NCBI GenBank assembly: GCA_019751125.1
Contig: JAIENU010000022.1
Coordinates: 7,524 to 71,523 of the forward strand
Length of the DNA stretch: 64,000 nucleotides
Reading direction: 5' to 3'
Source: Burkholderiales bacterium
GTDB taxonomy: Bacteria; Pseudomonadota; Gammaproteobacteria; Burkholderiales; SG8-41
Shown: in pieces, positions 1,771 through 61,319 of the stretch
Numbering within the stretch: position 1 is the stretch's first letter
How the letters are laid out: each line of letters opens with the position of its first letter
Translations under genes and position numbers: made by a program
Notes under the pieces: generated by a model
What the model was told of the DNA's origin: nothing
The model's input: only the letters and a program-made list of their open reading frames with translations
The model's database searches: none

Positions 1771-3405
1771 TCAGTAGATCAGCACCAGGGCGCCGTTGAG
1801 CCGCCAATCATCGACCTGGCGGGTGCCATGGGCCTTCAGCGGCTGGGCAAGATCCAGCCGCAGGCTGGCGGCCTTGCCATAGGTCAGGCGCAGGCCGACA
1901 CCGGTGCCGGCGAGGTATTTGCCGGCCTGTTCGCCGGGCAGCGGATCGTTGCGTTTGACGTCGCCGAAATCATAGAAACCGACCAGCCGTGCCCGCCATT
2001 TGTCGGACAGCCCGGCCTTGTCGGCGATGTTCGGTGTGTACATTTCCAGCTGCACCGCGTGACCCTTGTCATTGGCGGCCTCGCGCGGCAGGTAGCCGCG
2101 CACGGTGTCAAAACCGCCGATGCCGAACTGCTCGCCGGGCACCAGCAGATCCTGGGTGTACTGGGCCGAGAACGCCACCCGCCCCTGCCATTCGTTGCGG
2201 AAGGCGTGGTTGTAGGCAGTACCAAAACGCAGCACGGTATAGGTGGCGCTGGCGCCAAGGCGGGTGCGGTTGAAGTCAGCGGAGTCGCCGTCCTGGCCAC
2301 CGGGGATGTTGCGCGCGAGCGAGGCGTTGAAGCTCCATTCGCTGGCGGTCATCCGCATCAGGCCCGAATAACCGATCGAAACCGGATGCACGGTGATGTC
2401 CGGCACGAAGCCGACACCGCCGAGGGTGACATTGTTCTGGTAGGCACGGTAGTCGAGGCCGACAAAGGCGCGATGCTCGATGTCATCCCACTTCGGCAGG
2501 TAGTAGTTCCAGCGCGCGCCGAAAATCGAACCCTTGCCGCTGACGTTGAACAGGCCCTGCACGGTGCCGGAATCAACGTCGGAGTAACCGGCGAACATCT
2601 CCAGCATGCTGTTCAGGCGGTAGTACGGAATGCGGTAACCCAGACCGTAGATCGCCACCTGGTCATGGTTGGTCGGCGAAGTCACATACTGCGCCGAGAA
2701 CGAGTGGTCGCGGTCGAACAGGTTGGTGTGCTGGAAACCGACGCCGAGGCGCATGTAGCCGGTATCGCTGGTGCCGGTGTCATCGAGCGTCGTAATCAGC
2801 CGCCACGGCCGGCCGTCGGTGACGCGGATGTTGACGTCAACCAGGCCTTCGTTGGCGCCGGAACGCAGCAGCACGTTGCTCTGCTTCACCGGATGCTCGG
2901 CACCGATCTGCAGGTCGCGTGCAATGTCGCCGGAGTTCGGGATGCTGCCCTCTTTCACCGAAGGCAGCGCGCGGCGCACATTGTCATTGCTGAAAAACTC
3001 GTTGCCTTCAATGGTGACCTTGCCGATCTTCGGCTGGTTGATATTGAAGCGCACCACGCCGCGGGTGATGTCCTGCTCCGGCAATTGCACCTGCACCACG
3101 CCGTAGCCCAGCTTGCGGTATTCGGCCTCCAGCGCTTCCAGTGCCCGCTGCACGTCGCCGAAATCCTTCTGCGAGCCGGTAAACGGCGAGACGATGCGCT
3201 GGATGGTTGCGGCACCAAGAATGGTGTCGCCGTTGACTTCGAAGCTGCGGATTTCGAAACGGGGCGCGGGGATGACGACTTCCGCCGGGGCCGGGGTTTG
3301 AGCCGCGGTTTGCGCCTGAACCGGCAGCGCGATCGGGAAGGTTGCCGCCAGCAACATCGGAAAAATACTATAAATATTTGTTTTTATTGATATTTTTTTC
3401 ATCAT
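1771..3405 (-). CDS. TpsB (ShlB/FhaC/HecB family) outer-membrane transporter
   Basis: Signal peptide, POTRA (Y.KLGYGVVQVQLPEQDI..GVV), DDTGT..TG, VRGY motif, C-terminal aromatic residue; start moved to the ATG ATG at 3405/3402. Confidence 0.92.
   Translation of the reverse strand: MMKKISIKTNIYSIFPMLLAATFPIALPVQAQTAAQTPAPAEVVIPAPRFEIRSFEVNGDTILGAATIQRIVSPFTGSQKDFGDVQRALEALEAEYRKLGYGVVQVQLPEQDITRGVVRFNINQPKIGKVTIEGNEFFSNDNVRRALPSVKEGSIPNSGDIARDLQIGAEHPVKQSNVLLRSGANEGLVDVNIRVTDGRPWRLITTLDDTGTSDTGYMRLGVGFQHTNLFDRDHSFSAQYVTSPTNHDQVAIYGLGYRIPYYRLNSMLEMFAGYSDVDSGTVQGLFNVSGKGSIFGARWNYYLPKWDDIEHRAFVGLDYRAYQNNVTLGGVGFVPDITVHPVSIGYSGLMRMTASEWSFNASLARNIPGGQDGDSADFNRTRLGASATYTVLRFGTAYNHAFRNEWQGRVAFSAQYTQDLLVPGEQFGIGGFDTVRGYLPREAANDKGHAVQLEMYTPNIADKAGLSDKWRARLVGFYDFGDVKRNDPLPGEQAGKYLAGTGVGLRLTYGKAASLRLDLAQPLKAHGTRQVDDWRLNGALVLIY
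3371..3399 (-). repeat. Dispersed AT-rich IHF-like element, copy 1
   Basis: AAAAAAATATCAATAAAAACAAATATTTA; encodes KKISIKTNIY of the TpsB N-terminus. Confidence 0.8.
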
Positions 3406-3527
3406 CCTAGCCCTGAGACCACACTCCAAACCCCGTCGCCCAATGAGGGTCATTATCGCAGAAGACCCTGAAAAATCCAGCAACAGCCCGGGGTTCATCC
3501 GCATAGCCCCCGCCAGTCGCAGGTCCG

Positions 3528-3553
3528 AAAAAAACCCGGCAGTCACGCCGGGT
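3528..3553 (-). terminator. Intrinsic terminator between tpsA and tpsB
   Basis: ACCCGGC-6-nt loop-GCCGGGT followed by a U-run on the minus strand. Confidence 0.8.
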
Positions 3554-3575
3554 CTTTGTTCCGCTTAAACCACCA

Positions 3576-6500
3576 TCAACGACAGACCATCGTCCCCTTT
3601 TTCACGGTCTTGTCCTTGTCTTCCTCGGTAGCGCTGGTGGTGCCGGTGCTCTGCTGCTCGGCCGGCGGCTTGGCAGCCTGGGTCAGCGCGACGATCAGCG
3701 TATCGACCGGCGGCGAAATCGTGGCGCCGGCGCCGTAGGTCACGAACATGCTGGTGCCAAGCACCGCCGGATTCCCGACCACAAAGAAGCCGGAGTTGGT
3801 GGCCGCATCAAACACGGTCGCAACACCATTGACGAAGTATCCACCGCTCGACTGGGTCGGGAAGCTGATGTTGATGGTGCTGGGTGACTCGGCCGCGATC
3901 CGTCCAGGCTCGACCAAAGTGCCATTGATGTTGATGGTGCCGCCCACCTTCATGTTCACGTCGGGATAGCCGATGATGTCTGCACGATCCACCAGCACGC
4001 TGCCGCCGGCATCAATATTGGTGTTTGAGCCATAAGTACCCAGCTGGCCGAGATTGACAACATGGAGGTTGCCGCCGGTCACCACGTTGGTGCTGTTGGC
4101 CGATCCGTTGCCACCGTAGGCGTAACTGCCATCGATCAGCACGCTGGCGCCTTTCAGGGTCAGCGATCCCGCGCTGCCCACAGATGTAGCGCCGACAATC
4201 TGCAGAGCACCAGAACCCGCATCCAGCGTCAGGCCGTTGGCATAAATTGACCTGCCGGTCAGGCTGATGCCGTTGTTGCCGGCAAGGTAAACACCGCTGG
4301 TAGGCACGTAAATATTGCCGGTGCTCAGCGTGCCCGTAGTGCCGATCGAGGCCAGCGAGCCGCCGAAGCTGAGGCCGGCCAGGTTCAGGTTGCCGCTGTT
4401 GATGACGCCGATTTCCTGGCTACCCAGTGCTGTCGAACTCACCGTCAGGTCCAGCACCGAGGTTTCCAGCGGATTGGCGATCGAGCCGATTGAACCGCCA
4501 TAGGCTGCATTGATCACAGCCGAGTTGGCGATGATGTCGATGCCCACGTGATTGTCGGCGATTCAAGTGGACGCCGTCGAAAGTGTAACCGTGCCGGCAC
4601 CGGCGTTGAGCTGCCCGACAAGGGTCATGCCGCCGCCCGAACTGACGCTGATGTTGCCGCCGGCAGTGGATATGTTGCCGACTTCCATCGGTGCCGACGA
4701 GTTCACGCTGAAATTGCCGCTGCCGTTCACGCCGCCGGTGATATAGCTGATCTGGTTCGATCCGGACAACGTCACCCCGGACTGGGCTGAGGCGTTGAGG
4801 CCGCCGGTGATGACGCCCGCATCCTGCGAGACCGTTGAACCGCGGACATTCAGGAATGCGGCAGTCGGTCCGACCGAACCCTTGAAAATCAGCGGACCGC
4901 CGGTGATTTCGCCGATGAGCAGACCGCCGCTGGCGCCCGGATCCAGCGGATCGCCAGTTCCGTTCCAGGCACTCATCCGGTTCAGTTCGGCCGCATCCAA
5001 CGCCAGCGCGCCGCCGGCACCATCACCGGAAAGACCCAGGTGAATCGGGCCGCCGGCGATGTGGCGGATGTCAACGAAGTCACCCAGCGAACGAATGGCA
5101 CCCTGAAGATCGATGTCGCCGGCCTTGATCAGCGGCTCACGGCCGGTCACAAACGAACCTGCTTCGATCGTCAATTTGCCGCCGGCAATCAGCTCGACAT
5201 TACCCGTGCCGCCGACACCGGCCCTGATGCTGCCGAAAACACCGAAACCCTCATAACCGTCTGTCTGCTCGCCAAGGTAAATATGCCCGCTCGGCGCGTC
5301 CAGAACCACCGTCTGGCCCGGCAGCAAATCCGCAAAGTCAGGACGGAACGGTATGGTCAGTTCGATATTGCTGTCACTGCGGATGTAATAAGTGCCGTTC
5401 GGGTTGTTGTTGCGTACGTTTGCCAGATCACCGTCTATGGAGAGGCCGCTGCCGAGATAGTAAGTCGTGAGTCCGCCGGTATTGAAGAACGAAAGGCCGA
5501 TATGTCCGGAGGTTCCGCTGTTGATCACGCTGACATCGGGATCACCGGCAGCATCAATGCGTATCGGGTTGACCCGATCGCCAATGCCCGAGACCGCCGT
5601 CAGACTCACCGCGTTGTAGTCATAGTAATAACTGCTTCCCGTCGCCTTCAGGAAACCTGCGGCACTGGTTTGCTGGATCATGCCGCCGGCATTGAGTGAG
5701 ATAAAGCCGCGCTCGGCACCATCGGCGGTGACCGCCGCGTTCTGGGTGATATTGCCGCCGGCCGTCAGGTAAATGTCAGCCTCGTAGTAGGCCTCGGAAG
5801 TCAGCACCGCACCGGAATTGAGCACGATATTGCCGCCGGCCTGAAGATTGATTTCGGAATAATCATTGCTGCTACTGGCCAGAAGTTGCGCTGCGCCGTT
5901 CAGCGTGATGTTGCCAGCAGCGGCCTCGATCGTGATCAGCGCTTCGGAATTATTCGTTGCGGTGGCCGTCAGGTTGCCCGAACTGTTGATGGTCACATGA
6001 TTGGCCGCATGAATTTCGATCGCACTGCGGTTGGGGGCGGTGGCGGTAATGGGGGCGTTAATCGTCATACTGCCGGCGTTCGCGTGCAGCATCACCGTCG
6101 CATCGGTAAAGGGATAACCCGCTGAGGCAGTGATCTGGTTGTTGACGCTCAGGTCACCGGACGTCGTGCGCACATCAACCAGTGCATTACCCATGTTGCC
6201 GTTTACCGTGATGCCGTTGTTGGCACCCACGGCACCAATCTCGAGATTGCCGCTGTTGGTGAAATAAAATTCATTCTGCGAGCGACCCGCAAGCACGCCA
6301 ACCGAATTGGCGGCGCTATCGAGGTAAACCCCGCCTTCATTGCCATCGACATAAAGCTTTTTCACCGAGACCGAGCCGGCGGCGGATTGACCAATGCCGT
6401 AGGTGGCGCTCAATTCCAGCCGCTCAGCCTTCGCCGGAAGAATGTTGACGGGACCGTTAATTAAAATTTCGTCATTGGAAAAAATGTAAATCCGGCCAGA

Positions 6501-8252
6501 AGCGGGCGCATTCAGCTCCATCTTGGCGAAGCTGGCCGAGGTCAGGGTGTCAGCCGCGGAACCGATGGTGAAATAACCGCCGTAATTGGTCAGCTGGATC
6601 GAATTGCCCTTGACGATGGTGGCACCGCTGAAATCCATCAAATCGCTGCGCAGGTTAACGTCACCATTGGCGGCATGAATCGTCGCCCCGGGGCCGGCCA
6701 CCAGTGAAACGCTCGACTGCAGGTTGATCGGTCCGTTGGCTGCAGTGGCACCAAGCACGTTGAGGTTACCGGTATTGATCAGGTTGATCTCACCGCTGCC
6801 GCCACTGCTCGAAAGATTCACGTTGGAAACCTCGGTGCGCAGCGGATAGCTGAGGTTGCCGATCATGCCGGAGGCATTGCCGGTGAAAGAACCCGCCCGG
6901 ATGTCGGTCTTCAAGCCTGTATTGTTGGTCAGGATCGAACCGCCCGCGTTCAGAACGACCGACCCCGTAGTGCCGCCATCGAGAGCGGTGCCGCTGCCCA
7001 CGCCGAACATGATGTCGTTCACTGCGGTCAGCGTAAGGGTCGTGCCACTGGTCCAGCTGACATTGTCCTGGATCAGCACGTTGCCACCGCTCCCGCCCAT
7101 GCCGTTGGCGGACGAATACGACACGTTACCGCCCATCAGCGCAGCACCCAGGGCCGCACCGGAAATATCACCACCATAGGCCGAGGAAATAAGGAAATCG
7201 GTCGGGTCAATCAGCCAGGTGCCTGCAGCACCGCCGTTGCCACCCAGGGTGGTCACCGATGCGCTGTCCGCCACCTTGACCTTGGCCGCCGAAGTCTCGA
7301 TGAAACCGCCGTTGCCATTCGTCGCAGACGCATCAAGCTTGCCGGAAACCTGGGTCACGCCATTATTCATGTCGGACAACGCAATGATCTGGCCACCGGT
7401 CGTGCCCTTGGCGCTAGTCACGCTGCCCGCTTCGAGGTCGGTGCGCTTGGTGGACTTGAGCATGATGCGGCCACCTTCGGCGACCGCGCTGTCGGCATTG
7501 ATCACGCCGCCCTGCTTGATCAGGCCGGCATAGATGCCGATACGGCCGGCTTCGGCAACCACGCTGCCCAGGTTGCGCGCTTCGTTGTTGCCCGCCTGGA
7601 TTTCGACGCGCAGGTTGGGCGTGCCGGGATTGACCAGCTCGACACTGTTGCCGGCGGCGAGGATCACTTCACCACCGGGGCTGGTGATGATCCCCTGGTT
7701 GGTCACCGCATTGCCGACCATGTAAACGGGTCCACCCGCGGCATTGATCGAACCCTGGTTCAGCACCGAGCCGGCGCCCGTACCGTCGGTGAAATTCATG
7801 CGGCCGGCAAGGAAATCGGCATTGGAAAGATTCAGCGTCGAGGCCACCAGTCCGCCGACGTTGATCTGAGAGCCGGCGCCAAACACGATGCCGTTGGGAT
7901 TGAGCAGGAACACCTTGCCGTTGGACTGCAGTGCGCCGAGGATCGCCGAAGGATCCTGGCCGGTGACCCGGTTGAGCACCGCTGACAGGGCCGAGGGCTG
8001 GATGAACCGGGTCAGTTCATTGACGCCGATCGAGAACGAGCCCCAGTTGATGATCGCGTTGTGGCTGTTGGTGACGTTGAGGATGTTGCCGGCCTGCTGG
8101 AAGCTTGCCGTACCGTGCACCAACGTCGGATTGGTCGGGTTGGCCCAGACCATGCTGCTGAAACAGGCGGCGACCGCCAGTGCCGCCGCTTTCGGGCGGA
8201 GTTGCAAGCCGCTCGCCGAACGTCGGGTGGTGTGCGTGGTGTTGTTTTTCAT
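3576..8252 (-). pseudogene. TpsA filamentous-hemagglutinin-family exoprotein interrupted by one in-frame TGA (4563-4565)
   Basis: Signal peptide, TPS domain (INW.SFSIG, NRVTG, NPNG, GGFIETS, GTWLIDP), beta-helix repeats. ORFs 4563..8306 and 3576..4547 share a frame: ACT TGA ATC GCC GAC AAT CAC GTG. Confidence 0.8.
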
Positions 8253-8348
8253 GTTTTTCCCCTTTGCAGCCAGCGTTCTGGCATCACTCTGGCCAAGCTC
8301 AGGCACTGCTGTTGCCGGTGGACGACGCTTAAGCCACGATTGACATTG

Positions 8349-8422
8349 ATTATAGGGGGAAAAACCACAGAATCTCGAGGGTCTGCGCTGCGAATTTCAC
8401 AGGATTTGTGACAATTCTCACC
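8349..8422 (-). promoter_or_regulatory. tpsA promoter with CRP/Clp-type box
   Basis: TATAAT at 8354-8349 (minus) with no clear -35; TGTGA-N6-TCAC(C) at 8407-8422. Confidence 0.55.
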
Positions 8423-8490
8423 TCACTGACGCTCCAAACTGTCGCCGGATCGCGACAGTGACTCGCATCCACAAGACTCTTCTACGAGGC

Positions 8491-9225
8491 TCAACCCCGC
8501 TGGCGGCGGGATTCGGCCAGGCAGATCCCCGCCGACACCGAAACGTTGAGGCTTTCCACACTGCCCCGCATCGGAATCCGCGCCAGCTCGTCGCAGGTTT
8601 CCCGGGTCAGCCGGCGCATGCCCTCGCCTTCGGCGCCCAGCACCCAGGCCATCGGCCCGTCGAGCTTGATCGCGTAAAGATCCTTCTCGGCGCGCTCGTC
8701 GGCACCGATCAGCCACACGCCGCGGTCCTGCAGTTCGCGCATGGTGCGCGCCAGGTTGGTGACCATGATGTAGGGCACGCTGTCCGCCGCTCCGCTGGCG
8801 ACCTTGGCCACCGTGGCATTAAGGCCCACGGCGTGATCCTTCGGTGCGATCACCGCATGTGCACCCATGCCGTCGGCCACGCGCAGGCAGGCACCGAGAT
8901 TGTGCGGATCGGTGACACCGTCGAGGATCAGCAGCAGCGGCGCCTCGGAAATATCCTCCAGCACATCATCGATATGGGTCGGCAGTTTCACTGCCTCGAC
9001 CCGTGCCACCACGCCCTGATGCCGCTCCTGGCCGCTCATGCCGTCGAGGCGCTTGGCATCCACGGCAATCACCCGCACGCCCTTGGCTTCGGCCAGCGCC
9101 ATCAGATCTCGACAGCGCCGGTCCTGGCGCGCGGCGTCGATGTAGATCTCGCGCACCGCTTCGGCACGGCTGCGCAGGCGGCTGGTGACGGCGTGAAAAC
9201 CGTGGATCAGATGCAGGTCACTCAT
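8491..9225 (-). CDS. rlmB: 23S rRNA Gm2251 methyltransferase
   Basis: [37 protein letters not shown] SpoU motifs; follows rnr. Confidence 0.96.
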
Positions 9226-9235
9226 AGCAAATCTA

Positions 9236-9264
9236 TAAGTATTTGTTTTTATTGATTTATTTTA
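9236..9264 (-). repeat. Dispersed AT-rich IHF-like element, copy 2
   Basis: TAAAATAAATCAATAAAAACAAATACTTA; begins at the rnr stop codon and fills most of the rnr-rlmB gap. Confidence 0.85.
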
Positions 9265-11445
9265 TGCCAACACAAAGTCGATGCGCGCATTGTTGAGATC
9301 AACCTTGGCAATCTTCACCCGCAGCCGGTCACCAATGCGGTAACGCTGGCCGGTGCGCTCGCCGAGCAACTGGTGGCGGCCGGCGTCGTACTGGAAGTAA
9401 TCCTTGCCCAACTCGGAAATATGCACCAGCCCCTCTACATATACGTCGTCCAGCGCGACAAAGGCGCCGAAGGCGGCAACACCGGCAATACTGCCCATGA
9501 ACACTTCGCCGACGCGGTCGCGCATGTAATAACACTTGAGCCAGGCCGTGACGTCGCGGGTCGCCTCGTCGGCACGGCGCTCGGTCATCGAACACTGCGC
9601 ACCGAGTTCATGCCAGTCGCCGGGATCGTACTGGCTGCCGGCGAGCACGGCCTTGATCGCCCGATGCACCAGCAGGTCCGGGTAACGGCGGATCGGCGAC
9701 GTGAAATGGGTGTACGAATCGTAGGCGAGGCCGAAGTGGCCGGCATTTTTCGGCGTGTACACCGCCTGCTTCAGCGAGCGCAGCATCACCGTCTGCAGCA
9801 GCTGGGCATCGGGGCGGTCCTTCACCTTCGCCAGCAGCTTGGCGTAGTCCGAAGCATGCGGCATGTCGCCGCCACCGAGCTGTAGGCCGAAGCCTTTGAG
9901 GAAATCACGCAACGCGGCGAGTTTCTCCGGCGTCGGGCCCTCATGCACGCGGTAGAGCACCGGATGCCCGCGCTGGCCGAGGAAATCCGAGGTGCAGACA
10001 TTGGCTGCGAGCATGCACTCCTCGATCAGGCGGTGCGCGTCGTTGCGGATCACCGGCACGATGTTCTCGATCTTGCCCTGGTCATTGAAGATCATCTGAG
10101 TTTCAATGGTCTCAAAATCGATCGCGCCACGTTTGGCGCGCGCCTGCGCCAGTTGGTGATACAGCGCGTACAGCGCCTGCAGATGCGGCACCAGCGCGCG
10201 CCGCTTGCGCGCCGCAGTGCCGCGCGGATCCCCGAGGATGGCCGCGACTTCGGTGTAGGTGAAACGTGCGTGTGAACGCATCACCGCCGCATAAAACTTG
10301 TAGCCCTTGATCACGCCCTGGCCGTCGATCTGCATGTCGCAGACCATCGCCAGCCGCTCGACGTCGGGGTTGATCGAGCACAGGCCGTTGGACAGCGCTT
10401 CCGGCAGCATCGGGATCACCCGCCGCGGGAAATACACCGAGTTGCCGCGGTTGCGCGCCTCGAGGTCCAGCGCGTCGCCGGGCCTCACGTAATGGCTGAC
10501 ATCGGCAATCGCCACCACCAGGCGGAAGCCGCCGCGCGAGGGCTCGCAATACACCGCATCGTCAAAATCGCGCGCGGTTTCACCGTCAATGGTCACCAGC
10601 GGCATGTTGCGCAAGTCTTCGCGCCCCTTGTGGTCAGCCTTGCGTACCTCCTTCGGCAACTTCGCCGCCAGCGCCTCGGCCTCCTTCGGAAACTGCCAGG
10701 GCAGGTCATGCTTGCGCAGCGCGATTTCGATTTCCATGCCGGGGTCGGCGTAATTGCCGAGCACCTCGACCACCTTCGCCAGCGGCTTACCCTGGCGTCC
10801 CGGCTGGGTGATGATCTCGATACTGACCACCTGCCCCGGCCTGGCCTTGCCGGACTCGCCGGCAGGCACCACGAAGTCCTGGCTGATGCGCTTGTCCTCG
10901 GCGGCAACAAAAGTCACGCCGTGTTCAACATGCAGGCGCCCGACAATGCGCGTCTGGCCGTGTTCAAGCACTTCAACGATCTTGCCCTCGGGCCGGCCAC
11001 GGCGGTCCATGCCGGAAATGCGCGCCATCACGCGGTCGCCGTGCAGCACCTTGTACATCTCGCCGGAATCCAGAAACAGATCCGGGCCACCGTCGTCGCG
11101 GATCAGGAAGCCGAAGCCGTCCTTGTGGCCCTGCACGCGCCCGCGCACCAGTTCGAGCTTGTCGGCGACACAGAGATCGCCGCGGCGGTTGCGCATGATC
11201 TGGCCGTCGCGCTCCATCGCCGACAGGCGGCGCGTGAATGCTTCGTGCTCGCGGCGCTTGATGTCGAGCTCACGGGCAAGGTCACCCTCCTCCAGCGGCA
11301 CGCCGGCCTCGACCATGACCTCGAGGATCAGCTCGCGGCTGGGCAGCGGATGTTCATAACGTTCAGCCTCGCGCGCGGCCTGCGGGTCGCTGTGGCGACG
11401 GGAATCAGAGCGGCCGCGTGAGGCGGATTTTTTCGGTTTTTTCAT
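9262..11445 (-). CDS. rnr: Ribonuclease R
   Basis: TIDGETARDFDDAV, HFTSPIRRYPDL, CSD and S1 domains. Confidence 0.97.
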   Translation of the reverse strand: MKKPKKSASRGRSDSRRHSDPQAAREAERYEHPLPSRELILEVMVEAGVPLEEGDLARELDIKRREHEAFTRRLSAMERDGQIMRNRRGDLCVADKLELVRGRVQGHKDGFGFLIRDDGGPDLFLDSGEMYKVLHGDRVMARISGMDRRGRPEGKIVEVLEHGQTRIVGRLHVEHGVTFVAAEDKRISQDFVVPAGESGKARPGQVVSIEIITQPGRQGKPLAKVVEVLGNYADPGMEIEIALRKHDLPWQFPKEAEALAAKLPKEVRKADHKGREDLRNMPLVTIDGETARDFDDAVYCEPSRGGFRLVVAIADVSHYVRPGDALDLEARNRGNSVYFPRRVIPMLPEALSNGLCSINPDVERLAMVCDMQIDGQGVIKGYKFYAAVMRSHARFTYTEVAAILGDPRGTAARKRRALVPHLQALYALYHQLAQARAKRGAIDFETIETQMIFNDQGKIENIVPVIRNDAHRLIEECMLAANVCTSDFLGQRGHPVLYRVHEGPTPEKLAALRDFLKGFGLQLGGGDMPHASDYAKLLAKVKDRPDAQLLQTVMLRSLKQAVYTPKNAGHFGLAYDSYTHFTSPIRRYPDLLVHRAIKAVLAGSQYDPGDWHELGAQCSMTERRADEATRDVTAWLKCYYMRDRVGEVFMGSIAGVAAFGAFVALDDVYVEGLVHISELGKDYFQYDAGRHQLLGERTGQRYRIGDRLRVKIAKVDLNNARIDFVLA

Positions 11446-11474
11446 TTGAATTGCATGCTTTCATGGGCTAGAAT
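11446..11474 (+). promoter_or_regulatory. Sigma70 promoter of tRNA-Leu
   Basis: TTGAAT-N17-TAGAAT followed by a GC-rich discriminator. Confidence 0.7.
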
Positions 11475-11486
11475 GCCGCCCTCATT

Positions 11487-11571
11487 GCCCAGATGGCGGA
11501 ATTGGTAGACGCACCAGTTTCAGGTACTGGCGGGTAACACCGTGGAGGTTCGAGTCCTCTTCTGGGCACCA
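11487..11571 (+). tRNA. tRNA-Leu(CAG)
   Basis: GCCCAGA/TCTGGGC acceptor stem, CCAGT-TTCAGGT-ACTGG anticodon arm, long variable arm, GGTTCGAGTCC, encoded CCA. Confidence 0.97.
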
Positions 11572-11607
11572 GTAACATCGGGCAGTCGGTTGGTTGATGA
11601 CTGCCGT

Positions 11608-11646
11608 TGAAAAGAGCGCCATGCACCCGCATCGCGCTCTTTTTCA
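11608..11646. terminator. Bidirectional terminator between tRNA-Leu and purA
   Basis: TGAAAAGAGCGC...GCGCTCTTTTTCA inverted repeat between convergent genes. Confidence 0.75.
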
Positions 11647-11649
11647 TTT

Positions 11650-13020
<1,371 letters not shown>

Positions 13021-13034
13021 TTAGGAAATTTCAA

Positions 13035-13061
13035 TTATTTATCAATAAAAACAATTGGTTA
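13035..13061 (+). repeat. Dispersed AT-rich IHF-like element, copy 3
   Basis: TTATTTATCAATAAAAACAATTGGTTA in the hisZ-purA gap. Confidence 0.85.
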
Positions 13062-13073
13062 CGTAATACACGC

Positions 13074-14234: not shown

Positions 14235-14322
14235 GACGGGTAATCAGCGCAAAGCCGAAGCGCGGCCAGTGGGTTGTTCAGGGGCAACATTATATAAAAG
14301 CGCGGTGCAGCCGGCGCTGAAT

Positions 14323-14511: not shown

Positions 14512-14553
14512 GGGGTGCGGGAATCATGGCCGGCGGGCAGCACCGCCCCGCCG

Positions 14554-15444: not shown

Positions 15445-15445
15445 G

Positions 15446-16726: not shown

Positions 16727-16753
16727 CGGAACGGATCACTCAAATTGAAGGAA

Positions 16754-17902
16754 TCAAGCCAGGGGAATCAGGCTGGTCAACGGAGGCTGAACAACGGTTT
16801 GGTTGGATGCGGCGGTTTGTTGTGCGTATTCGCCGATGGCGGCACGCAAAAGGTCGATGCCGTCACCGCTGGCCGCACTGATCCAGACGCGGGAAATTCT
16901 AGCATATTCATCACGTTCGACCCTCGGCGGCAGCGCCGTGCGGTCGATCTTGTTGAGCACCATGACCTGCGGAATCCGGTCGGCGCCGATCTCCGCGAGA
17001 ACCCCCTGCACCGCCGCGATCTGCGCTTCCCGGTCGGGGCTGCTGGCATCCACCACATGCAGCAGCAGGTCGGCGTGCACGGTCTCCTCCAGGGTCGCCT
17101 GGAAGGCCTCGACCAGGGTGTGCGGCAGGTGGCGGATGAAACCGACGGTGTCGGACAGCACCACTGAAGCCCCTTCGATGCCACCCAGCCGCCGCGTCGT
17201 GGTGTCGAGCGTGGCAAACAGCTGGTCGGCGGCATAGGCCTCGGCACGGGTCAGGCGGTTGAACAGCGTCGATTTGCCGGCATTGGTATAGCCGACCAGC
17301 GACACCGAAAACACATGGGCGCGGGTGCGCGAGCGACGCTGGGTTTCATGCTGCGAACGCACTTTCACCAGCTTTTCCTTCAGCAGCTTGACCCGCTTGC
17401 CGAGCAGCCGGCGGTCGGTCTCGAGCTGGGTTTCGCCGGGGCCGCGCATGCCGATGCCGCCGCGCTGGCGTTCAAGGTGGGTCCAGCCGCGGACCAGCCG
17501 GGTGGACAGGTGTTCTAGCTGGGCCAGTTCGACCTGCAGCTTGCCGATGTGGCTGCGTGCGCGCTGGGCGAAGATGTCGAGAATCAGGCTGGTGCGGTCG
17601 ACCACCCGGCAGCCGAGCTTGCGCTCGAGGTTGCGTTCCTGGATTGGCGACAGGGCGTGGTTGAACAGCACCAGCGAGGCACCGCTGGTGCGCACCGCCT
17701 CGCCGATTTCCTCGACCTTGCCCTTGCCGGCATACAGCGCCGCATCGGGCCGGTCCCGGCGGCCACGCACCAGCGTGGTTACCGTGACACCGCCGCTGCG
17801 CGCGAGCAACTGCAGCTCGTCCACGCTCTCCGCGTAGTCGGGCTCGCCGAAGTCGAGCGCCACCAGCACCGCCAGGTTGCCGCTACCGGGGCGTTCAAAC
17901 AT
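16754..17902 (-). CDS. hflX: GTPase HflX
   Basis: GPGETQLETDRR, GYTNAGKST, DTVGF, NKID. Confidence 0.97.
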   Translation of the reverse strand: MFERPGSGNLAVLVALDFGEPDYAESVDELQLLARSGGVTVTTLVRGRRDRPDAALYAGKGKVEEIGEAVRTSGASLVLFNHALSPIQERNLERKLGCRVVDRTSLILDIFAQRARSHIGKLQVELAQLEHLSTRLVRGWTHLERQRGGIGMRGPGETQLETDRRLLGKRVKLLKEKLVKVRSQHETQRRSRTRAHVFSVSLVGYTNAGKSTLFNRLTRAEAYAADQLFATLDTTTRRLGGIEGASVVLSDTVGFIRHLPHTLVEAFQATLEETVHADLLLHVVDASSPDREAQIAAVQGVLAEIGADRIPQVMVLNKIDRTALPPRVERDEYARISRVWISAASGDGIDLLRAAIGEYAQQTAASNQTVVQPPLTSLIPLA

Positions 17903-17903
17903 C

Positions 17904-17929
17904 AAAAAACCAGTAAAAACAGTTACTTA
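17904..17929 (+). repeat. Dispersed AT-rich IHF-like element, copy 4 (variant)
   Basis: AAAAAACCAGTAAAAACAGTTACTTA; fills the hfq-hflX gap and overlaps the hfq stop. Confidence 0.65.
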
Positions 17930-18162
17930 TCTTGTTTTTCGTCAAACTGCAGACTCACCGCGCGCGCCGGCACGACCGTGGAAATGGCGTGCTTGTAGAC
18001 CATCTGCGTGACGGTGTTCTTGAGCAGAACCACGTACTGGTCGAAGGAATCGACCTGGCCCTGCAATTTGATGCCGTTGACGAGGTAAATCGAGACGGGG
18101 ATGTGTTCCTTGCGCAAGGCGTTCAGGAACGGGTCTTGTAGCAGCTGCCCTTTATTACTCAT
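17923..18162 (-). CDS. hfq: RNA chaperone Hfq
   Basis: [29 protein letters not shown]. Confidence 0.99.
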
Positions 18163-19580: not shown

Positions 19581-19610
19581 GGTTGGGGACGCGGCAGAGC
19601 GCGCCCGCGC

Positions 19611-20756: not shown

Positions 20757-21391
20757 TATTTGGCCTCGCCCAGTGCGTCGAGTTTGAGCTGCAGGATCTG
20801 CCGCGAGGGACTTGCCGAGTCGCTCTTGTCAAAGGCCGACTGGTAGGCGGCGCGCGCTTCGGCACGTTTGCCGCTGGCCATCAGCGCCTCACCCTTGACC
20901 TCGGCATAGAGCCCGGCAAAACTTTCACCGTGTTTGGCTTCGAGCTGCTTCAGCGCCTCGGCCGGATTTTTTTCGTCGAGCAGCACCCGCGCCAGGCGCA
21001 AGCGGGCGACATCACGCACTTCCTCTTCCTTGGCGTTGTCGATCACCCACTGCAGGCGTTTTTTGGCGGCCGGCAGGTCGCCGGTCTCGAAATCGCTTTT
21101 GGCGGCCGACAGCGAAGCCAGCGTCGCATACTGGGTGGAGCCGTAGCTGTCGACAATCTGAACCGCGATGTCGCGCACCCTTTTGTGATCATTGCCGCGC
21201 TCAGCCATTTGCAGCTGGCCGAACAGCACTGCCGCCGACGAAGCCTGCTGGTTCTTGTAATAGTGCCAGCCGCGCACCGCTGCAATCGCCAGCGCGGCAC
21301 CCACCACGGTGATGATCACCAGCTTGCCGTACTGCTGCCACCAGCCCTTCAGCGCCGACAGCTGTTCCTGCTCTTCTAGATCGTAAGCCAT
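20756..21391 (-). CDS. yfgM: YfgM family TPR membrane protein
   Basis: MAYDLEEQEQL..LK.WW..YG, LARLRLARV-like motif; between hisS and bamB. Confidence 0.9.
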   Translation of the reverse strand: MAYDLEEQEQLSALKGWWQQYGKLVIITVVGAALAIAAVRGWHYYKNQQASSAAVLFGQLQMAERGNDHKRVRDIAVQIVDSYGSTQYATLASLSAAKSDFETGDLPAAKKRLQWVIDNAKEEEVRDVARLRLARVLLDEKNPAEALKQLEAKHGESFAGLYAEVKGEALMASGKRAEARAAYQSAFDKSDSASPSRQILQLKLDALGEAK

Positions 21392-21411
21392 TGATTTACC
21401 TTGATTTATTT
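21384..21411 (-). repeat. Dispersed AT-rich IHF-like element, copy 5
   Basis: AAATAAATCAAGGTAAATCAATGGCTTA; perfect WATCAANNNNTTR core containing the yfgM ATG. Confidence 0.75.
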
Positions 21412-21431
21412 CTGGTTTTCGTTCCGGGCAT

Positions 21432-24955: not shown

Positions 24956-25783
24956 TCATTCAAACCGTCCGGCCTGCAGCGCTTCGGCCTCCCGCGACTG
25001 CGGGAAATTGTTGCGCAGCTGATGGGCGTAACTTGCCTCGGCCACCGCATTGCCCATGCGCCGCTCGATGCGCAGGCCGAGCCAGAGGATCTCCGGGGTC
25101 GGCGGCACCAGTTGCACCAGCCGGCGCATGTAACCGTGCGCGCTGGCCGTATTGTTCGCGGCAAAGGCCAGGTCCGCGAGCTGGTACAGCGCCTGCGGCT
25201 GGTTCGGCCGCAGCGCGACAGCACGCTGGAAAAATTCCAGGGCGCCGGCATTGTCACCACGACGCCGCGCGCAGACACCGGCATTGACCAGCGAGCGTTC
25301 CGGCGCCTGGTACAGCGGGTTCTGCACGGCGGTGAGGAAATACTTGATGCCCTCGGCCTCGCGTTTGCGCTGGCAAAGGTACTGGCCGTAGTTGTTGTTG
25401 ACGTCGGGGTCGGCCGGCGCAAGGCGCAGCGCGCGCTGGAAGCTGTCCTCGGCACGGCGGTCATCCTTCAGCGCTGCAAACACCAGCCCGCCGACATTGA
25501 AGGCCGCTGCGTAAGTCGGATCGGACTGCTGGGCGATATTCACTTCCTCCAGCGCGACACCCAGGTTGCCCAGTTCGAAATAACCGGCCGCCAGTTCGGT
25601 ATGGATGCGCGCGCGGTTGCGCGCGTCACTTTCATTGCCCGAAGTCGAGGTCACCGGCTGCAGGTCACCGCTCTCAGGACTACCACCGGTCCCGGCGCAG
25701 GCAGAGATCAACGACGCCAACAACAGGACGGACAGCAGGTTCATAAAAATACTTTTAAAAACAATAGCTTGCATGTTAATCAT
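24956..25783 (-). CDS. pilW: Type IV pilus biogenesis/stability TPR lipoprotein PilW (PilF)
   Basis: Lipobox [26 protein letters not shown]; ATGA overlap with rlmN (alternative start 25744). Confidence 0.9.
25745..25771 (+). repeat. Dispersed AT-rich IHF-like element, copy 6 (variant)
   Basis: AAAAATACTTTTAAAAACAATAGCTTG; antisense within the pilW signal-peptide codons. Confidence 0.65.
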
Positions 25784-34288: not shown

Positions 34289-34376
34289 CCGGATATCCCC
34301 GCCTGTCCTGCGCCCGAAAAACAAGTCCGCAAGATAACAGGTCATCAGCCCTTAAAAAACGCTCGCAATATAATTT

Positions 34377-34406
34377 CAAGCCATTGTTTTTATTGAATAT
34401 TTTTTT
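34377..34406 (-). repeat. Dispersed AT-rich IHF-like element, copy 7
   Basis: AAAAAAATATTCAATAAAAACAATGGCTTG; encodes the MFS C-terminus KNIQ and its stop. Confidence 0.85.
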
Positions 34407-39939: not shown

Positions 39940-39961
39940 GATCGCCCCCGAGGGTTATTCA

Positions 39962-39990
39962 TAACCCGTTGTTTTAATTGATTATTTTTT
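39962..39990 (-). repeat. Dispersed AT-rich IHF-like element, copy 8
   Basis: AAAAAATAATCAATTAAAACAACGGGTTA; encodes the thioesterase terminal KK and stop. Confidence 0.85.
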
Positions 39991-40404
39991 ACCACCGCTG
40001 TTGACCAGTGCAACCTTGTTCTGGGTGCGCACATCGAAGCGCTCGACGTTGACGATGATGCGCTCGTGCACGCCCTCGCCGATGCGCTCCACCGCATCCT
40101 CGGCCCACACCCTGAACGTGAGCTTGCGTCCTTCAACCTTGACCACTTCGGCATGTGCCTTGACCCGCATGCCCACCGGTGTCGCCGCGGTGTGGCTGAC
40201 ATCAAGCCGTGTGCCGACAGTCTGATGACCGGCCGGCAACAAACCTTCGACGGCATTCAGCGCCGATTCCTCGAGCAGCATCACCAGCACCGGCGTCGCC
40301 AGCACCTTGATGCGGCCGCTGCCGACATGCGGCGCGGTGTCGCGCGTGCCGACCATGATTTCGGTGGAGCCCTGCAGTCCGCTGCGGATGGCGCTCAGAT
40401 CCAT
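39982..40404 (-). CDS. FlK-family hot-dog thioesterase
   Basis: VLATP..LLEE..TVGT.LDVSH.AATPVG (Thr/Glu/His triad pattern), GEGVHER. Confidence 0.88.
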   Translation of the reverse strand: MDLSAIRSGLQGSTEIMVGTRDTAPHVGSGRIKVLATPVLVMLLEESALNAVEGLLPAGHQTVGTRLDVSHTAATPVGMRVKAHAEVVKVEGRKLTFRVWAEDAVERIGEGVHERIIVNVERFDVRTQNKVALVNSGGKK

Positions 40405-45398: not shown

Positions 45399-45419
45399 CA
45401 CTCCCCTCTAACCGCTCTG

Positions 45420-45445
45420 ATTTTTATCAAAAAAACAATGATTTA
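45420..45445 (+). repeat. Dispersed AT-rich IHF-like element, copy 9
   Basis: ATTTTTATCAAAAAAACAATGATTTA in the kinase-peptidase gap. Confidence 0.75.
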
Positions 45446-45455
45446 TGCCAACCAC

Positions 45456-56543: not shown

Positions 56544-56556
56544 CGCAGAATCTCCA

Positions 56557-56584
56557 TAAGCTATTGTTTATATTGATATTTTTA
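56557..56584 (-). repeat. Dispersed AT-rich IHF-like element, copy 10
   Basis: TAAAAATATCAATATAAACAATAGCTTA between the Bug stop and the TauD RBS. Confidence 0.85.
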
Positions 56585-57553
56585 TCAGTCTATGCGGATA
56601 TTCGCCGCCTTGGCGATGCGGCCATAACGGACAAACTCGTCCCGGATCTGCGCGCCATATTCCTGCGGCGTGCTGCCCACCGCTTCGAGACCGCGCGCGG
56701 CGAGTGCCGCCTTGCTCTCCGCTGATTTGAGGATCGCCACCATGTCCTTGTTCAAGCGCGCAATCACCGCTGCCGGCGTCTTCGCCGGCGCGAGCACGCC
56801 GAACACCGTCGCCGAGTCGTAACCGGGCACGCCCTCTTCAGCCACCGTCGGAAACTCCGGCGCCAGCGCCGAACGCTGCCTGGTGCCCACCGCAAGAAGG
56901 CGCAGCTTGCCCGAACGCACATGCGGCAGGATGGTTGGCAGGTTTTCAAACATCAGGTTGAGCCGGCCGCCGAGCAGGTCGGTCACCGCCGGGCCCGCGC
57001 CCTTGAACGGCACATGCACCAGTTTGATGCCGGTCATCGCCATGAACTGCTCGGTGGAAAAATGCCCGACCGAGCCGTTGCCGGCGGAACCGAAGTTGAG
57101 TTCACCCGGCTTCGCCTTCGCCAGCGCAATCAGTTCCTTCACCGTCTTTGCCTGGAATCCGGGATGGGTGACCAGCGTGAACGGGCTCACTGTCGCCAGC
57201 GTGATTGGCGCGAAATCCTTCAGCGAGTCGTATGGCGTCTTGTCGCGGATGTTGGGGTTGATGGTCAGCGGCCCCGCGCTGCCGAGCACGATGGTGTAGC
57301 CGTCGGCCGGTGCACGCGCCGCCAGCTCGGCGCCGAGCACACCGCCGGCACCCGCGCGGTTGTCCACCACCACGGTCTGGCCCAGCGGCGCACCCAGCTG
57401 CTGCGCCAGAAAACGCGCCAGCAGGTCGGTGCTGCCGCCCGGCGCGAAGGGCACGATGAAACGCACCGGCTTGTTCGGGTAATTGGCCTGGGCCTGCACT
57501 GCCGGTGCAATGAACGGCGCCGCCAGTGCAGCGGCGATCAAGGTATTGCGCAT
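56585..57553 (-). CDS. Bug/TctC tripartite tricarboxylate transporter receptor
   Basis: YPNKPVRFIVPFAPGGSTD, NRAGAGG, DGYT, HVPFKG. Confidence 0.93.
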   Translation of the reverse strand: MRNTLIAAALAAPFIAPAVQAQANYPNKPVRFIVPFAPGGSTDLLARFLAQQLGAPLGQTVVVDNRAGAGGVLGAELAARAPADGYTIVLGSAGPLTINPNIRDKTPYDSLKDFAPITLATVSPFTLVTHPGFQAKTVKELIALAKAKPGELNFGSAGNGSVGHFSTEQFMAMTGIKLVHVPFKGAGPAVTDLLGGRLNLMFENLPTILPHVRSGKLRLLAVGTRQRSALAPEFPTVAEEGVPGYDSATVFGVLAPAKTPAAVIARLNKDMVAILKSAESKAALAARGLEAVGSTPQEYGAQIRDEFVRYGRIAKAANIRID

Positions 57554-59552: not shown

Positions 59553-59560
59553 AATTGCTT

Positions 59561-60961
59561 TTATAACTCCTCAACCGTCACCGGGAACAGCGGTGCCAGC
59601 GCATCGACCTCGACCACGTGATAGGCACTGAAGCGGTACGCGGTGCCGGCCATCACCTCGGGCGGCGTGAACGGGAAGGCCAGATTGCCGCCGGTGGAGA
59701 TACGCCCCGGAAAACCGTTGTGCAGCAGGTATTGCTTGAACACCGTCGCCACCGACTTGGCATCGGCGGCCGTGGCCGCGATCACCTCGACCATCACGAA
59801 GACCTCGCGCGGCAGCGGATTGGCGGCCGAAGGCCAGGCTGTGACACCGTTGAGTCCATATATCTTGGGATAGATCAGGAACGGCGCGCTGACTGAAGGC
59901 GTGACCAGCTCGCGCACCGTCTTTTCGACATTGGCGAGGATGTCGGGCATCGCCGCAATTGCACTTGGGTCACCGCAGCCGGCGAGCAGCACCGCGCGTT
60001 CGCCGACGCGGGTGGCGCCTTCGATTTTCACGGTGAACTGCGTGGCCGGCTCCCAGCGCGCACCGCTGATATGGCAACGGTGTTCGTCGAGCGCCTGGTA
60101 ACGCGCGCTGTCGGTATGCAGCGTGCCTTCGGGCTCATGCACGCGGTAGGGATCACCCTGCTCGTAAAGACTGTGCGCCGCCACCGACATCGGCGTCGCG
60201 TGGCGGATCGGGTTCATGCTGTCGATGGTGAAACCGTCGCCGTCGAGCGTGCCCATCAGCGCATCGCGGCCGCCGGGCGTGGTGCAGATCGAGCAGCACT
60301 CGATGATTTTCGCCATGTGCATCGCCGGCCCCAGCGGATAACCCAGCGCCGCCGGAATCGCCGCGAACACCGCGGTGTCGCAGGCACGCCCGGCGATCAC
60401 CACATCGGCGCCGGCCTCCAGCGCTCGCTGGAAGGCCTCGATGCCCATCTGGCCGACGATCTGCGACGCGCCGTCGATGTCATCTTCGGTCAGTGCCGCA
60501 ATCGCACCCAGCGGGCGCGTTCGGCCTGCACGCACCGCCGCCTTGAGCAGGTCGCGCGGCATGTCGGCGCGGATCGAAGCCAGCCTGAAGTGCAGGCCTT
60601 CGCGGCGCGCGATGTCGCGCACCATCGCCAGCGTGGTGTCGAGGTGCGGCGCGGCACCGGCAGTGCCCGCGGTGCCCAGCAGCAGCGGCACATTGATCGA
60701 ACGCGCGCCACGCAGCACCTTGGCCAAATCATCGCGGGTGATCGCATCACTGGTGGCGAGCTGGCCGCTGCCAAGGTAGTACGGGCCGGGATCAACCGAG
60801 CCCATGTCGCAGCCGATGAAATGCGGCTTGCGCTTGAGCCCTTCGGCCAATGCCGCTTCAGGAATGCCGTAACCCAGCTGGCCGGATGCAGCCAGTGCAC
60901 GCAGCGGCTGGCGCTGGCCGCCGGAGATGAGCTGCCCGCGAAGGCGATCGAGATGGTTCAC
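59561..60961 (-). CDS. AtuA/DUF1446 family protein
   Basis: SGQLGYG, D.GS.DPGPYYLG.G, AGRACD, AKIIEC, SVAAHSLYE. Confidence 0.85.
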   Translation of the reverse strand: MNHLDRLRGQLISGGQRQPLRALAASGQLGYGIPEAALAEGLKRKPHFIGCDMGSVDPGPYYLGSGQLATSDAITRDDLAKVLRGARSINVPLLLGTAGTAGAAPHLDTTLAMVRDIARREGLHFRLASIRADMPRDLLKAAVRAGRTRPLGAIAALTEDDIDGASQIVGQMGIEAFQRALEAGADVVIAGRACDTAVFAAIPAALGYPLGPAMHMAKIIECCSICTTPGGRDALMGTLDGDGFTIDSMNPIRHATPMSVAAHSLYEQGDPYRVHEPEGTLHTDSARYQALDEHRCHISGARWEPATQFTVKIEGATRVGERAVLLAGCGDPSAIAAMPDILANVEKTVRELVTPSVSAPFLIYPKIYGLNGVTAWPSAANPLPREVFVMVEVIAATAADAKSVATVFKQYLLHNGFPGRISTGGNLAFPFTPPEVMAGTAYRFSAYHVVEVDALAPLFPVTVEEL

Positions 60962-61269
60962 AGGGTGATGTCCAGCAAGGGACCGTGCTGCTGCGCACCG
61001 TAGACATCGCGGTCACCGGGCGTGCCGGCTACGATGGCGCGGTCCATCACGATCTTGATCGCCTGTGCCGGCGGATAGGGAATGACTTCAACCTGCGAAG
61101 GCTCGAGGCCGTAGAGCGCCGCAATCGCCGCCGGCTGCAGCGCCGCAGCGCCCTGCGCACGGCTGTAGCCCGCGGCGTCGTTGAACATCAGGTCTATGGT
61201 CAGCGTGGTCGGACCGGCATTCTTGCTGCGCACCACGCGCGCAACGTCGAGCAGTTTCATCAGCTTCAT
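60958..61269 (-). CDS. DUF4387 family protein
   Basis: ARVVRSKNAGP..LTIDLMF, GDRDVYGAQQH. Confidence 0.88.
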   Translation of the reverse strand: MKLMKLLDVARVVRSKNAGPTTLTIDLMFNDAAGYSRAQGAAALQPAAIAALYGLEPSQVEVIPYPPAQAIKIVMDRAIVAGTPGDRDVYGAQQHGPLLDITL

Positions 61270-61290
61270 TCACAGCCCTTGCGGGCGGTG

Positions 61291-61319
61291 AAAATTATTT
61301 CAATAAAAACAATGGCTTA
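61291..61319 (+). repeat. Dispersed AT-rich IHF-like element, copy 11
   Basis: AAAATTATTTCAATAAAAACAATGGCTTA; its terminal TTA is the VOC stop codon on the other strand. Confidence 0.85.

Follow-up and report, generated by a model that had tools for sequence, protein, structure and literature searches.

An AT-rich repeat of about 380 candidate integration host factor sites at gene ends, with a short-range exclusion zone, in a freshwater Burkholderiales bacterium

The window analyzed here is a stretch of 64,000 nucleotides from a Burkholderiales bacterium (GenBank assembly GCA_019751125.1, contig JAIENU010000022.1, positions 7,524 to 71,523 of the forward strand). Its freshwater host genome carries an AT-rich repeat of 35–38 bp in about 380 copies, and the copies in the window lie at gene junctions (Table 1). 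An initial annotation, made from the sequence of the window alone, had listed 11 copies and read them as binding sites resembling those of integration host factor (IHF), recurring about every 5 kb. The gene names of the window were checked by family scans, which bore out the named junctions rnr-rlmB, hfq-hflX, rlmN-pilW, TctC(Bug)-TauD, and Glyoxalase(VOC)-DUF4387. With the annotated pattern WWTCAATAAAAACAANNNNTTR and up to three mismatches, eight matches were found in the window against 0.01 expected from shuffled sequences, starting at 3371-, 9236-, 13040+, 17908+, 34377-, 39962-, 56557-, and 61298+. When the window was scored with a position weight matrix (PWM) of the whole family, nine of the 11 copies stood as solid members (25.7–57.5 bits; the eight pattern matches plus 25742+), and those at 21384 (17.0 bits) and 45420 (12.0 bits) proved to be decayed. 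The copy at 45416 is regarded as a decayed member because the orthologous place in the closest relative, genome G031, holds a 47-bit copy. Two additional copies at 30963 and 51825, which had been proposed to fill the longest gaps, were not members, scoring −29.5 and −19.6 bits and having no G031 site at matching places. The gaps between the nine solid copies measured 5.9, 3.8, 4.9, 7.8, 8.6, 5.6, 16.6, and 4.7 kb.

Table 1. Copies of the repeat in the window (positions counted from the first nucleotide of the window; scores from the 38-nt PWM)
Feature	Position	Strand	Score (bits)	Mismatches	Location and remarks	Ortholog in G031
Element copy	3363..3400	-	57.5	0	Upstream of ShlB/FhaC-type transporter gene 1771-3357, downstream of 3576-4547	yes
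Element copy	9228..9265	-	55.1		Occupies entire 36-bp rnr-rlmB gap	
Element copy	13032..13069	+	49.2		Between hisZ stop and purA start, antisense to both	
Element copy	17900..17937	+	25.7	3	Overlaps last hfq codons and 20-bp hfq-hflX gap	
Degenerate copy	21376..21413	-	17.0		hisS-yfgM junction; perfect AATCAATGGCTTA core, 5' half lost	
Element copy, TTT variant (CTTTTAAAAACAA)	25742..25779	+	32.7		Between rlmN stop and pilW start	
Element copy	34369..34406	-	54.1		Between MFS transporter gene 34390-35595 and dienelactone-hydrolase-like gene 33428-34288	yes, with different spacer
Element copy	39954..39991	-	57.1		Occupies 42-bp gap between FlK thioesterase-like gene and CDF (MntE-like) transporter gene	yes
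Decayed copy	45416..45453	+	12.0		Between glutamate carboxypeptidase gene and histidine kinase gene	47-bit copy at orthologous place
Element copy	56549..56586	-	49.2		Occupies 41-bp TctC(Bug)-TauD gap	yes
Element copy	61290..61327	+	47.0		Between Glyoxalase/VOC gene and DUF4387 gene, antisense to both	yes

The source assembly (G000) comprises 3,457,426 bp in 275 contigs at 63% G+C and is 94% complete. The 38-nt PWM was derived from 303 hits in this genome, its 4-base spacer being kept neutral for window scoring. The genome scan, which had been proposed as a check together with the initial annotation, returned 383 non-overlapping sites of at least 30 bits, 195 on the plus and 188 on the minus strand, against six in the reversed genome, and the repeat is therefore real. 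Its consensus is A.AAAWWWW TCAATAAAA(A/T)CAA T(G/T)(G/A)(C/G) TTA T, followed by a short AT-rich tail, in which the four bases between CAA and TTA form a loosely constrained spacer. The string TCAATAAAAACAA occurs in 129 exact copies, 125 of which continue with NNNNTTR. Beyond positions −10 and +27, the flanks carry less than 0.1 bit per position. The only strong covariation within the element concerns the adjacent positions 2 and 3 (AA in 297 copies, TT in 62), and neither a hairpin nor long-range covariation was found in the copies. No Rfam family matched at the copies, and a candidate RNA element was rejected on the grounds of this missing match, the missing covariation, and the occurrence of copies in both orientations.

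Gene positions for the placement analysis were obtained with our own codon-usage gene caller (3354 genes, 90% coding). Tandem gaps held 233 of the 383 sites, 120 in the orientation of the flanking genes and 113 opposite, which agrees with the initial description of copies in both orientations irrespective of gene direction. Convergent gaps contained 45 sites, divergent gaps 40, and contig ends 12; 53 sites fell "inside" called genes, most of which presumably reflect start-codon or spurious open reading frame (ORF) errors. One of the sites inside a called gene, a 50-bit copy at C261:20418 of the source genome, aligns without gaps to unrelated G+C-rich sequence of G031, like a replaced 35-bp patch, although this alignment could also result from mis-pairing of paralogues.

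The copies lie directly 3' of stop codons in either orientation, the median distance from the stop codon to the element being −0.5 nt for copies in the same orientation and 13 nt for opposite ones, and where the gap measured 120 bp or more, 73 of 104 copies were closer to the stop than to the next start. Several make up the whole of an intra-operon gap of 36–42 bp, as at rnr-rlmB, FlK-CDF, and TctC-TauD, and at hfq-hflX the hfq stop codon falls inside the 4-base spacer. Of the gaps of 40 bp or more, 21% of the tandem, 26% of the convergent, and 11% of the divergent ones were occupied; at equal gap lengths of 60–250 bp, occupancy was 4–9% for divergent against 13–20% for tandem gaps. The copies thus avoid divergent promoter regions.

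These placement statistics largely refute an ordinary regulon, in which a single transcription factor would control the adjacent genes through the copies as its operators or activator sites. In line with the initial annotation, the family does not behave as a promoter regulon, since convergent gaps hold a copy no less often than tandem gaps and copies are depleted in divergent gaps. About ten copies at the IHF position of sigma-54-type promoters, and the 40 copies in divergent gaps, are what such a regulon would explain. Set against them are the 45 copies in promoterless convergent gaps, with the occupancy of 26% versus 11% given above, the many copies that fill 36–42 bp intra-operon gaps, an orientation that is random relative to the genes, and flanking genes that are functionally unrelated, so that we give this explanation next to no credence. 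A promoter reading of the element was also rejected: Sigma-70-type matches in positions 1–20000 of the window occurred at the level of chance (6 vs. 3.7 ± 2.0), and only one of them uses an element copy.

The claimed absence of strand polarity was confirmed as well, as the site counts by strand and sign of the local GC skew were 85, 84, 79, and 73, whereas the genes follow the skew. A polar chromosome motif of the KOPS or Chi kind was rejected, the element having no strand bias that follows the direction of replication.

The closest relative G031 shows 84–87% DNA identity to the window, and all nine solid window copies, as well as the decayed 45416 copy, have orthologs there. In the genome-wide comparison, 34 of 38 mappable sites of the source genome were common to G031; of the four not shared, two were present in G031 on inspection, one lay in a duplicated segment found only in the source genome, and one was aligned ungapped to unrelated sequence. 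Conversely, 36 of 46 G031 sites had a counterpart of at least 20 bits, four had one below this value, and six could not be mapped. A second relative, G048, has an HflX of 85% identity; of its 34 sites, eight were unmappable, and among the 26 mappable ones 21 were shared with the source genome and five were absent there. Place and orientation of the rnr-rlmB, purA-hisZ, and hfq-hflX copies are kept in the genus, with hits of at least 25 bits in 12 of 13, 12 of 14, and 12 of 14 genomes, respectively. The rnr-rlmB copy was seen in 13 of 13 genomes whose contig covers the junction (one with a 1-nt length change), and the hfq-hflX copy in all 14 genomes aligned (two with a 1-nt length change). Most copies are conserved in position across the genus. 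The hisS-yfgM junction gave no hit of at least 25 bits in 14 relatives. At rnr-rlmB, two genus genomes (L009:18346-18465 and L011:1890-2095) carry a (CCAGTTA)n array of about 9 and about 17 units, which fills the gap before rlmB and begins within the 3' end of the element (…AGTTACC), a microsatellite seeded by the element.

Within the conserved places, conservation is uneven. In 33 orthologous pairs from the source genome and G031, the core (positions 0 to 12) was 94.6% identical and the TTA block 97%, and the 4-base spacer was only 53% identical (33% at position 14). The flanks showed 52–63% identity in this ungapped alignment, and these values are consequently underestimates. Purifying selection acts on the two blocks and not on the spacer. 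The preferred spacer differs by species, being TGGC or TGAC in the source genome and ATAC or TTAC in G048 and among the matches listed for G007 and G016.

A few copies are not shared, and these bear on how the family arose. The rlmN-pilW copy occurs only in the source genome and G031, where it forms a 35-bp insert that is essentially the element itself, flanked on both sides by ATGA in the source genome; 12 other genomes have an ATGA stop/start overlap at this junction. Similarly, a 39-bp gap in the source genome spans exactly the copy at C5:31761 of G048. Given these two clean presence/absence cases of 35–39 bp, copies can be gained or lost as whole units. Other absences among the relatives look like decay by substitution.

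Such unit-sized events would be expected if the element were the relic of a miniature insertion element, later domesticated: A 35–39 bp module, for example a transposon or phage end with an IHF site, would have spread in the ancestor of the genus, a rule resembling target immunity would have spaced the copies, and their persistence at gene ends would reflect how little damage they cause in such places. Positions just past stops and in convergent gaps are typical of tolerated insertions, and the abundance is restricted to two genera among the 99 sampled. We nevertheless consider this origin unlikely, since the copies have no terminal inverted repeats, palindrome, or covarying flanks, nearly all of them are old and orthologous, and flanking 4–6-mers were not in excess over shuffled pairings when searched as target-site duplications (4-mers in 179 of 382 copies vs. 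168 ± 8.5). No transposase was found linked to the element, no search aimed at transposases having been made. Block identities of 95–97% against 53% in the spacer further point to binding-type blocks that are under selection, not merely tolerated. Next to one copy after a gene end in G031 (contig 7, approximately 16,660–16,800), there is a palindromic element of about 130 bp with CACAGAG-type repeats, which is missing at the same junction of the source genome, where a degenerate copy remains.

The spacing of the copies was analyzed next to null models in which the 383 sites were placed at random among intergenic regions. Four of these models gave equal weight to all regions with a minimum length of 30, 60, 100, or 150 bp, and a fifth weighted the regions from 30 bp upward by their length (500 simulations each); these nulls treat every intergenic region of a class as equally eligible. 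The 219 within-contig gaps of the source genome averaged 7.25 kb (median 6.1 kb) with a coefficient of variation (CV) of 0.59; 1.8% of them were below 1 kb and 5.0% below 2 kb. The null models gave CVs of 0.89–0.98 ± 0.06 and 20–25% of gaps below 2 kb, and neither the observed CV nor the observed fraction below 2 kb was reached in any of the 500 simulations for each of the five nulls. In G048, the 34 sites in 320 kb of one contig had a CV of 0.57 and a smallest gap of 2.4 kb (uniform null 0.96 ± 0.15, lowest of 2000 simulations 0.56), and the 47 sites in 337 kb of G031 had a CV of 0.54 (uniform null 0.98 ± 0.14, lowest 0.62). The under-dispersion that had been proposed as a test of the initial claim is therefore present against five intergenic nulls and in two relatives.

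The ~5-kb period, however, has to be abandoned, because the mean gap is 7.25 kb and no second peak exists. The ratio of all-pairs distances to expectation was 0.20, 0.17, 0.44, and 0.72 at 0–1, 1–2, 2–3, and 3–4 kb (z = −3.4, −5.1, −3.8, and −1.8), so that additional copies are depleted two- to six-fold within 0–3 kb around each copy. Beyond 3–4 kb the curve was flat within noise, and no periodic peaks were detected up to 30 kb. Since the short-range depletion is not followed by later peaks, the spacing represents an exclusion zone and not a period. By our own calculation, a CV of about 0.65 is expected from a hard-core model that excludes 2.5 kb and continues with an exponential tail, and the exclusion zone consequently accounts for most of the regularity. 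The zone extends to weaker sites, as sub-threshold copies of 22–30 bits were found within 2 kb of a strong copy in 12.5% of cases, compared with 38% of copy-free intergenic midpoints. Deletion between direct repeats was rejected as its cause, because among the 99 same-oriented and 120 opposite neighbor pairs, those less than 3 kb apart were equally rare (13.1% vs. 12.5%). Exceptions were four doublets lying 91–274 bp apart in one gap and nine pairs 1.2–2.0 kb apart. At C269:13790-14360 of the source genome, a module consisting of a palindrome (GTATCCGTCA…TGACGGATAC), an element copy, and a terminator-like GC hairpin occurs twice, 274 bp apart, and its second unit is missing from G031.

Even spacing has also been reported for the uptake sequences of Haemophilus (PMC1939737, in a passage citing Karlin et al.). 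The repeat might accordingly be a DNA uptake sequence, whose copies would be spread and maintained by uptake bias and recombination, with one copy per fragment being enough to produce even spacing. The genus-wide over-representation with species-specific spacer "dialects" and the lack of strand polarity fit this idea, as do a ComEC gene in four of five genus genomes searched and the type IV pilus gene pilW in the window. The density is about one copy per 9 kb, however, compared with about one per kb in known cases, and the copies are intergenic, whereas the known sequences lie largely within genes. The only HHH_3 domains detected, a type characteristic of ComEA, lay within open frames of 814–1031 aa in four of the five genomes, and no small ComEA-type gene was detected, in a search that may miss short genes. 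As the block structure fits a cytoplasmic protein, IHF, and the enrichment at sigma-54 promoters would be left unexplained, an uptake function appears very improbable.

The blocks of the element were then compared with the IHF consensus WATCARNNNNTTR. At positions 7–19 the consensus was matched exactly in 74 of 382 copies and with at most one mismatch in 375, with AAACAA as the core of 294 copies and AATCAA as that of 78. Within 12 bp upstream, 318 of 382 copies have an AAA and 224 an AAAA; positions −9 to −5 are 64–84% A, except for position −8, which is A or T (45% and 39%). The A-tract and the core are 10–11 bp apart, 1–2 bp more than in lambda H', and in 365 of 382 copies the spacer contains a pyrimidine-purine step. 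The published IHF site combines the consensus in one half with an A-tract in the other and has two kinks 9 bp apart, with WATCAR between them (bioRxiv 10.1101/382655). The element, which is longer than 25 bp and asymmetric, fits this layout, and the conserved/variable/conserved profile with a free 4-base spacer and TTA reads as the signature of IHF.

A second line of evidence comes from promoters of the sigma-54 type, where IHF sites have their established place 10–100 bp upstream of the −24 box. Putative promoters were defined as matches to a −24/−12 pattern upstream of genes. For 10 of 37 such matches, an element copy was centered 10–100 bp upstream of the −24 box, in comparison with 6.8% of matched pseudo-promoters (binomial p = 1.4e-4), and the genes behind these ten include an ammonium transporter, two pilin-type genes, and NMT1-type and family-5 solute-binding proteins. 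A small part of the family therefore probably belongs to ordinary regulation.

Canonical IHF genes are present in the genus. The IHF beta gene of the source genome matches 1ihf_B (E = 1.5e-32), and the IHF alpha gene of G031, directly after pheT, matches 1ihf_A (E = 3.4e-40). Each of the five genus genomes searched (G048, G011, G003, G031, and G032) has two HU/IHF-family genes; elsewhere in the order, 4–5 were found in two other families and two in the sister genus. Loss of HU was rejected as the trigger of the expansion, because the sister genus without expansion also has two such genes. The IHF-like identity proposed initially is thus supported by the consensus match, the conservation of blocks around a free spacer, the sigma-54-type enrichment, and the IHF genes themselves.

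A different, lineage-specific DNA-binding protein reading the TCAATAAAA block could in principle be responsible, the likeness to IHF sites then being partial or coincidental. The IHF consensus does not include the TCAAT block and conflicts with the A at core position 3, IHF sites usually carry far less total information than the element, and the sister genus has the same IHF gene complement without the expansion. This alternative is improbable in our judgment, because it would leave the IHF signature of conserved blocks, free 4-base spacer, and TTA to coincidence, as well as the perfect-IHF AATCAA form, which is found in 78 of 382 copies and dominates in a second lineage, and the enrichment of the motif at the classical IHF position of sigma-54 promoters. 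Moreover, no candidate protein was identified.

The second lineage emerged from a survey of the order. In a first draw, all 18 genomes of the genus contained 21–165 exact copies of a 19-nt version of the pattern. In the order-wide sample of 151 genomes from 60 families and 99 genera, searched with an 18-nt version, many copies were found in only two groups, namely this genus (158–229 copies in three of three genomes) and g8, a genus from a different family, whose three sampled genomes (G025, G106, and G152) carried 48, 78, and 111 copies, mostly of the perfect AATCAA form. The remaining genomes had 0–8 copies, and the sister genus of the same family had one. Among 80 loci around hflX in named public records, copies of at least 29 bits on G+C-rich DNA occurred only in the one record of the same genus and in one relative of 73% identity; on AT-rich DNA (45% G+C), a single hit was obtained at each of two loci, with 26.1 and 34.0 bits. 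The nearest public records at hflX are uncultured betaproteobacterial assemblies. Positions 8400–18300 of the window were present at 93–95% of sampled words in 14 runs labeled as freshwater or drinking-water metagenomes, and RNA runs contained only minor portions of this DNA.

Two other features of the window were recorded. Positions 1771–8252 encode a two-partner secretion pair, in which the ShlB/FhaC-type transporter (1771–3357) is accompanied by a 1229-aa protein with a filamentous-hemagglutinin N-terminal domain (4563–8252), and an element copy stands immediately upstream of the transporter gene. A tRNA gene (11487–11568, +) lies between rnr and purA on the strand opposite both.

Taken together, the repeat is probably a family of about 380–400 strong, asymmetric candidate sites for the heterodimeric bending protein IHF, the bulk of which would serve as architectural bends. 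Each site consists of an A-tract, about 10 bp containing TCAAT, the core AA(A/T)CAA, four loose bases with a flexible pyrimidine-purine step, and TTA. IHF would bind each copy and bend the DNA into a U-turn; about ten copies would help enhancer looping at sigma-54 promoters, and the bulk would form fixed bends at gene ends. These bends may pin the tips of plectonemes or hinder the transcription-driven spread of supercoils between neighboring transcription units. A second site within about 3 kb would add nothing and would not be kept, which would produce the exclusion zone. The selective maintenance at fixed places, in combination with this zone, suggests a role at the level of DNA architecture in which a nearby second site is redundant.

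Several points weigh against such an interpretation. The core carries A instead of T at the third position in most copies (294 of 382) and hence deviates from WATCAA, and since the strongly conserved TCAAT block (positions 0–4) has no counterpart in the general IHF consensus, it could be recognized by a different or a further protein. The presence of IHF is not enough to account for the expansion, because the sister genus with the same two IHF genes has a single exact copy. The ihfA gene is missing from the source assembly, in which the entire pheT-ihfA-merR stretch is unassembled; this assembly is broken into 275 contigs, and the gene positions rest on a crude gene caller of our own. Because the sites of G031 and G048 are mostly common by descent, these genomes bear out the spacing on long contigs but are not independent replicates of it. 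The g8 genome G152 lacks the exclusion zone, with 9 of 32 gaps below 2.1 kb (gaps among 100 listed of its 111 matches) against 4 of 103 for the same pattern in the source genome (Fisher p = 3e-4), and the spacing rule is consequently not inherent to the motif. Finally, the architectural role of the copies is pure inference.

Among known systems, the closest are the RIB/RIP (BIME-1) elements of E. coli, which likewise consist of an IHF-type site repeated many times per genome after gene ends. In E. coli, a barrier function against supercoil diffusion has been suggested for BIMEs, of which some bind IHF (PMC6907758, PMC2817692); PMC2817692 also gives background on RIBs and cites Boccard and Prentki (1993). 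The location at the 3' ends of transcription units is shared by the element, as seen from the stop distances and the convergent occupancy. BIME-1 has its IHF site between two inverted REP palindromes, whereas the element has neither palindromic flanks nor covariation; it further differs from RIBs in its roughly 380 copies in 3.5 Mb, its positional conservation across the genus, and the exclusion zone of 0–3 kb. Neither a genus-wide positional conservation nor an exclusion zone of RIBs turned up in the literature searched, from whose coverage most subscription journals were absent. The element appears to be a variant of the known IHF-site repeats after gene ends.

With the classical IHF sites of lambda H' and sigma-54 promoters, the element has in common the WATCARNNNNTTR core, an A-tract in the other half, a length of about 35 bp, and asymmetry, and about ten copies resemble the promoter sites also in lying between the presumed enhancer region and the −24/−12 box. 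It is unlike them in being a near-identical repeat with an extra fixed TCAAT and mostly AAACAA, located mostly away from any expected promoter, origin, or recombination site. The uptake sequences of Pasteurellaceae and Neisseriaceae (USS/DUS) are similar in their hundreds or more of copies, lack of polarity, lineage "dialects", and spacing more even than random. For these sequences, 1471 and 1965 copies per genome, 65% and 35% of them inside genes, are stated in PMC1939737; the element is ten-fold sparser, purely intergenic, longer, and AT-rich, with a motif that fits the site of a cytoplasmic protein. Other small intergenic repeats, such as the Correia elements of Neisseria and the REP elements of Pseudomonas, some of which carry or bind IHF, have inverted repeats or palindromes and look mobile. 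Unlike these, the element shows no inverted repeats or palindrome and no excess of target duplications. A literature search for IHF sites or IHF-site repeats with even or regular spacing gave no description of such an array; most subscription journals lie outside its coverage, and novelty is limited accordingly.

The evolution of the family poses a puzzle of its own, as copies are kept out of a 3-kb neighborhood in this genus, and the same motif occurs in a second lineage without the rule. In a bolder and rather doubtful extension of the IHF interpretation, about 400 conserved high-affinity sites, at least about 3 kb apart and one per 7–9 kb, would constitute a hard-wired folding code, in which each U-turn would pin a plectoneme tip or block supercoil diffusion and the chromosome would fall into heritable topological units, each comprising a few genes. 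On this reading, IHF may be the principal bending protein of these cells, as no third HU/IHF-family gene appeared in the five genus genomes searched. What determines the barriers between bacterial topological domains is still listed as an open question in PMC6907758. The topological barriers of E. coli appear to be randomly placed, and this genus would offer candidate barriers that are encoded in the sequence. With a single 38-bp motif readable by eye, about 400 conserved places, and a measurable spacing rule, the question of chromosome folding would become testable.

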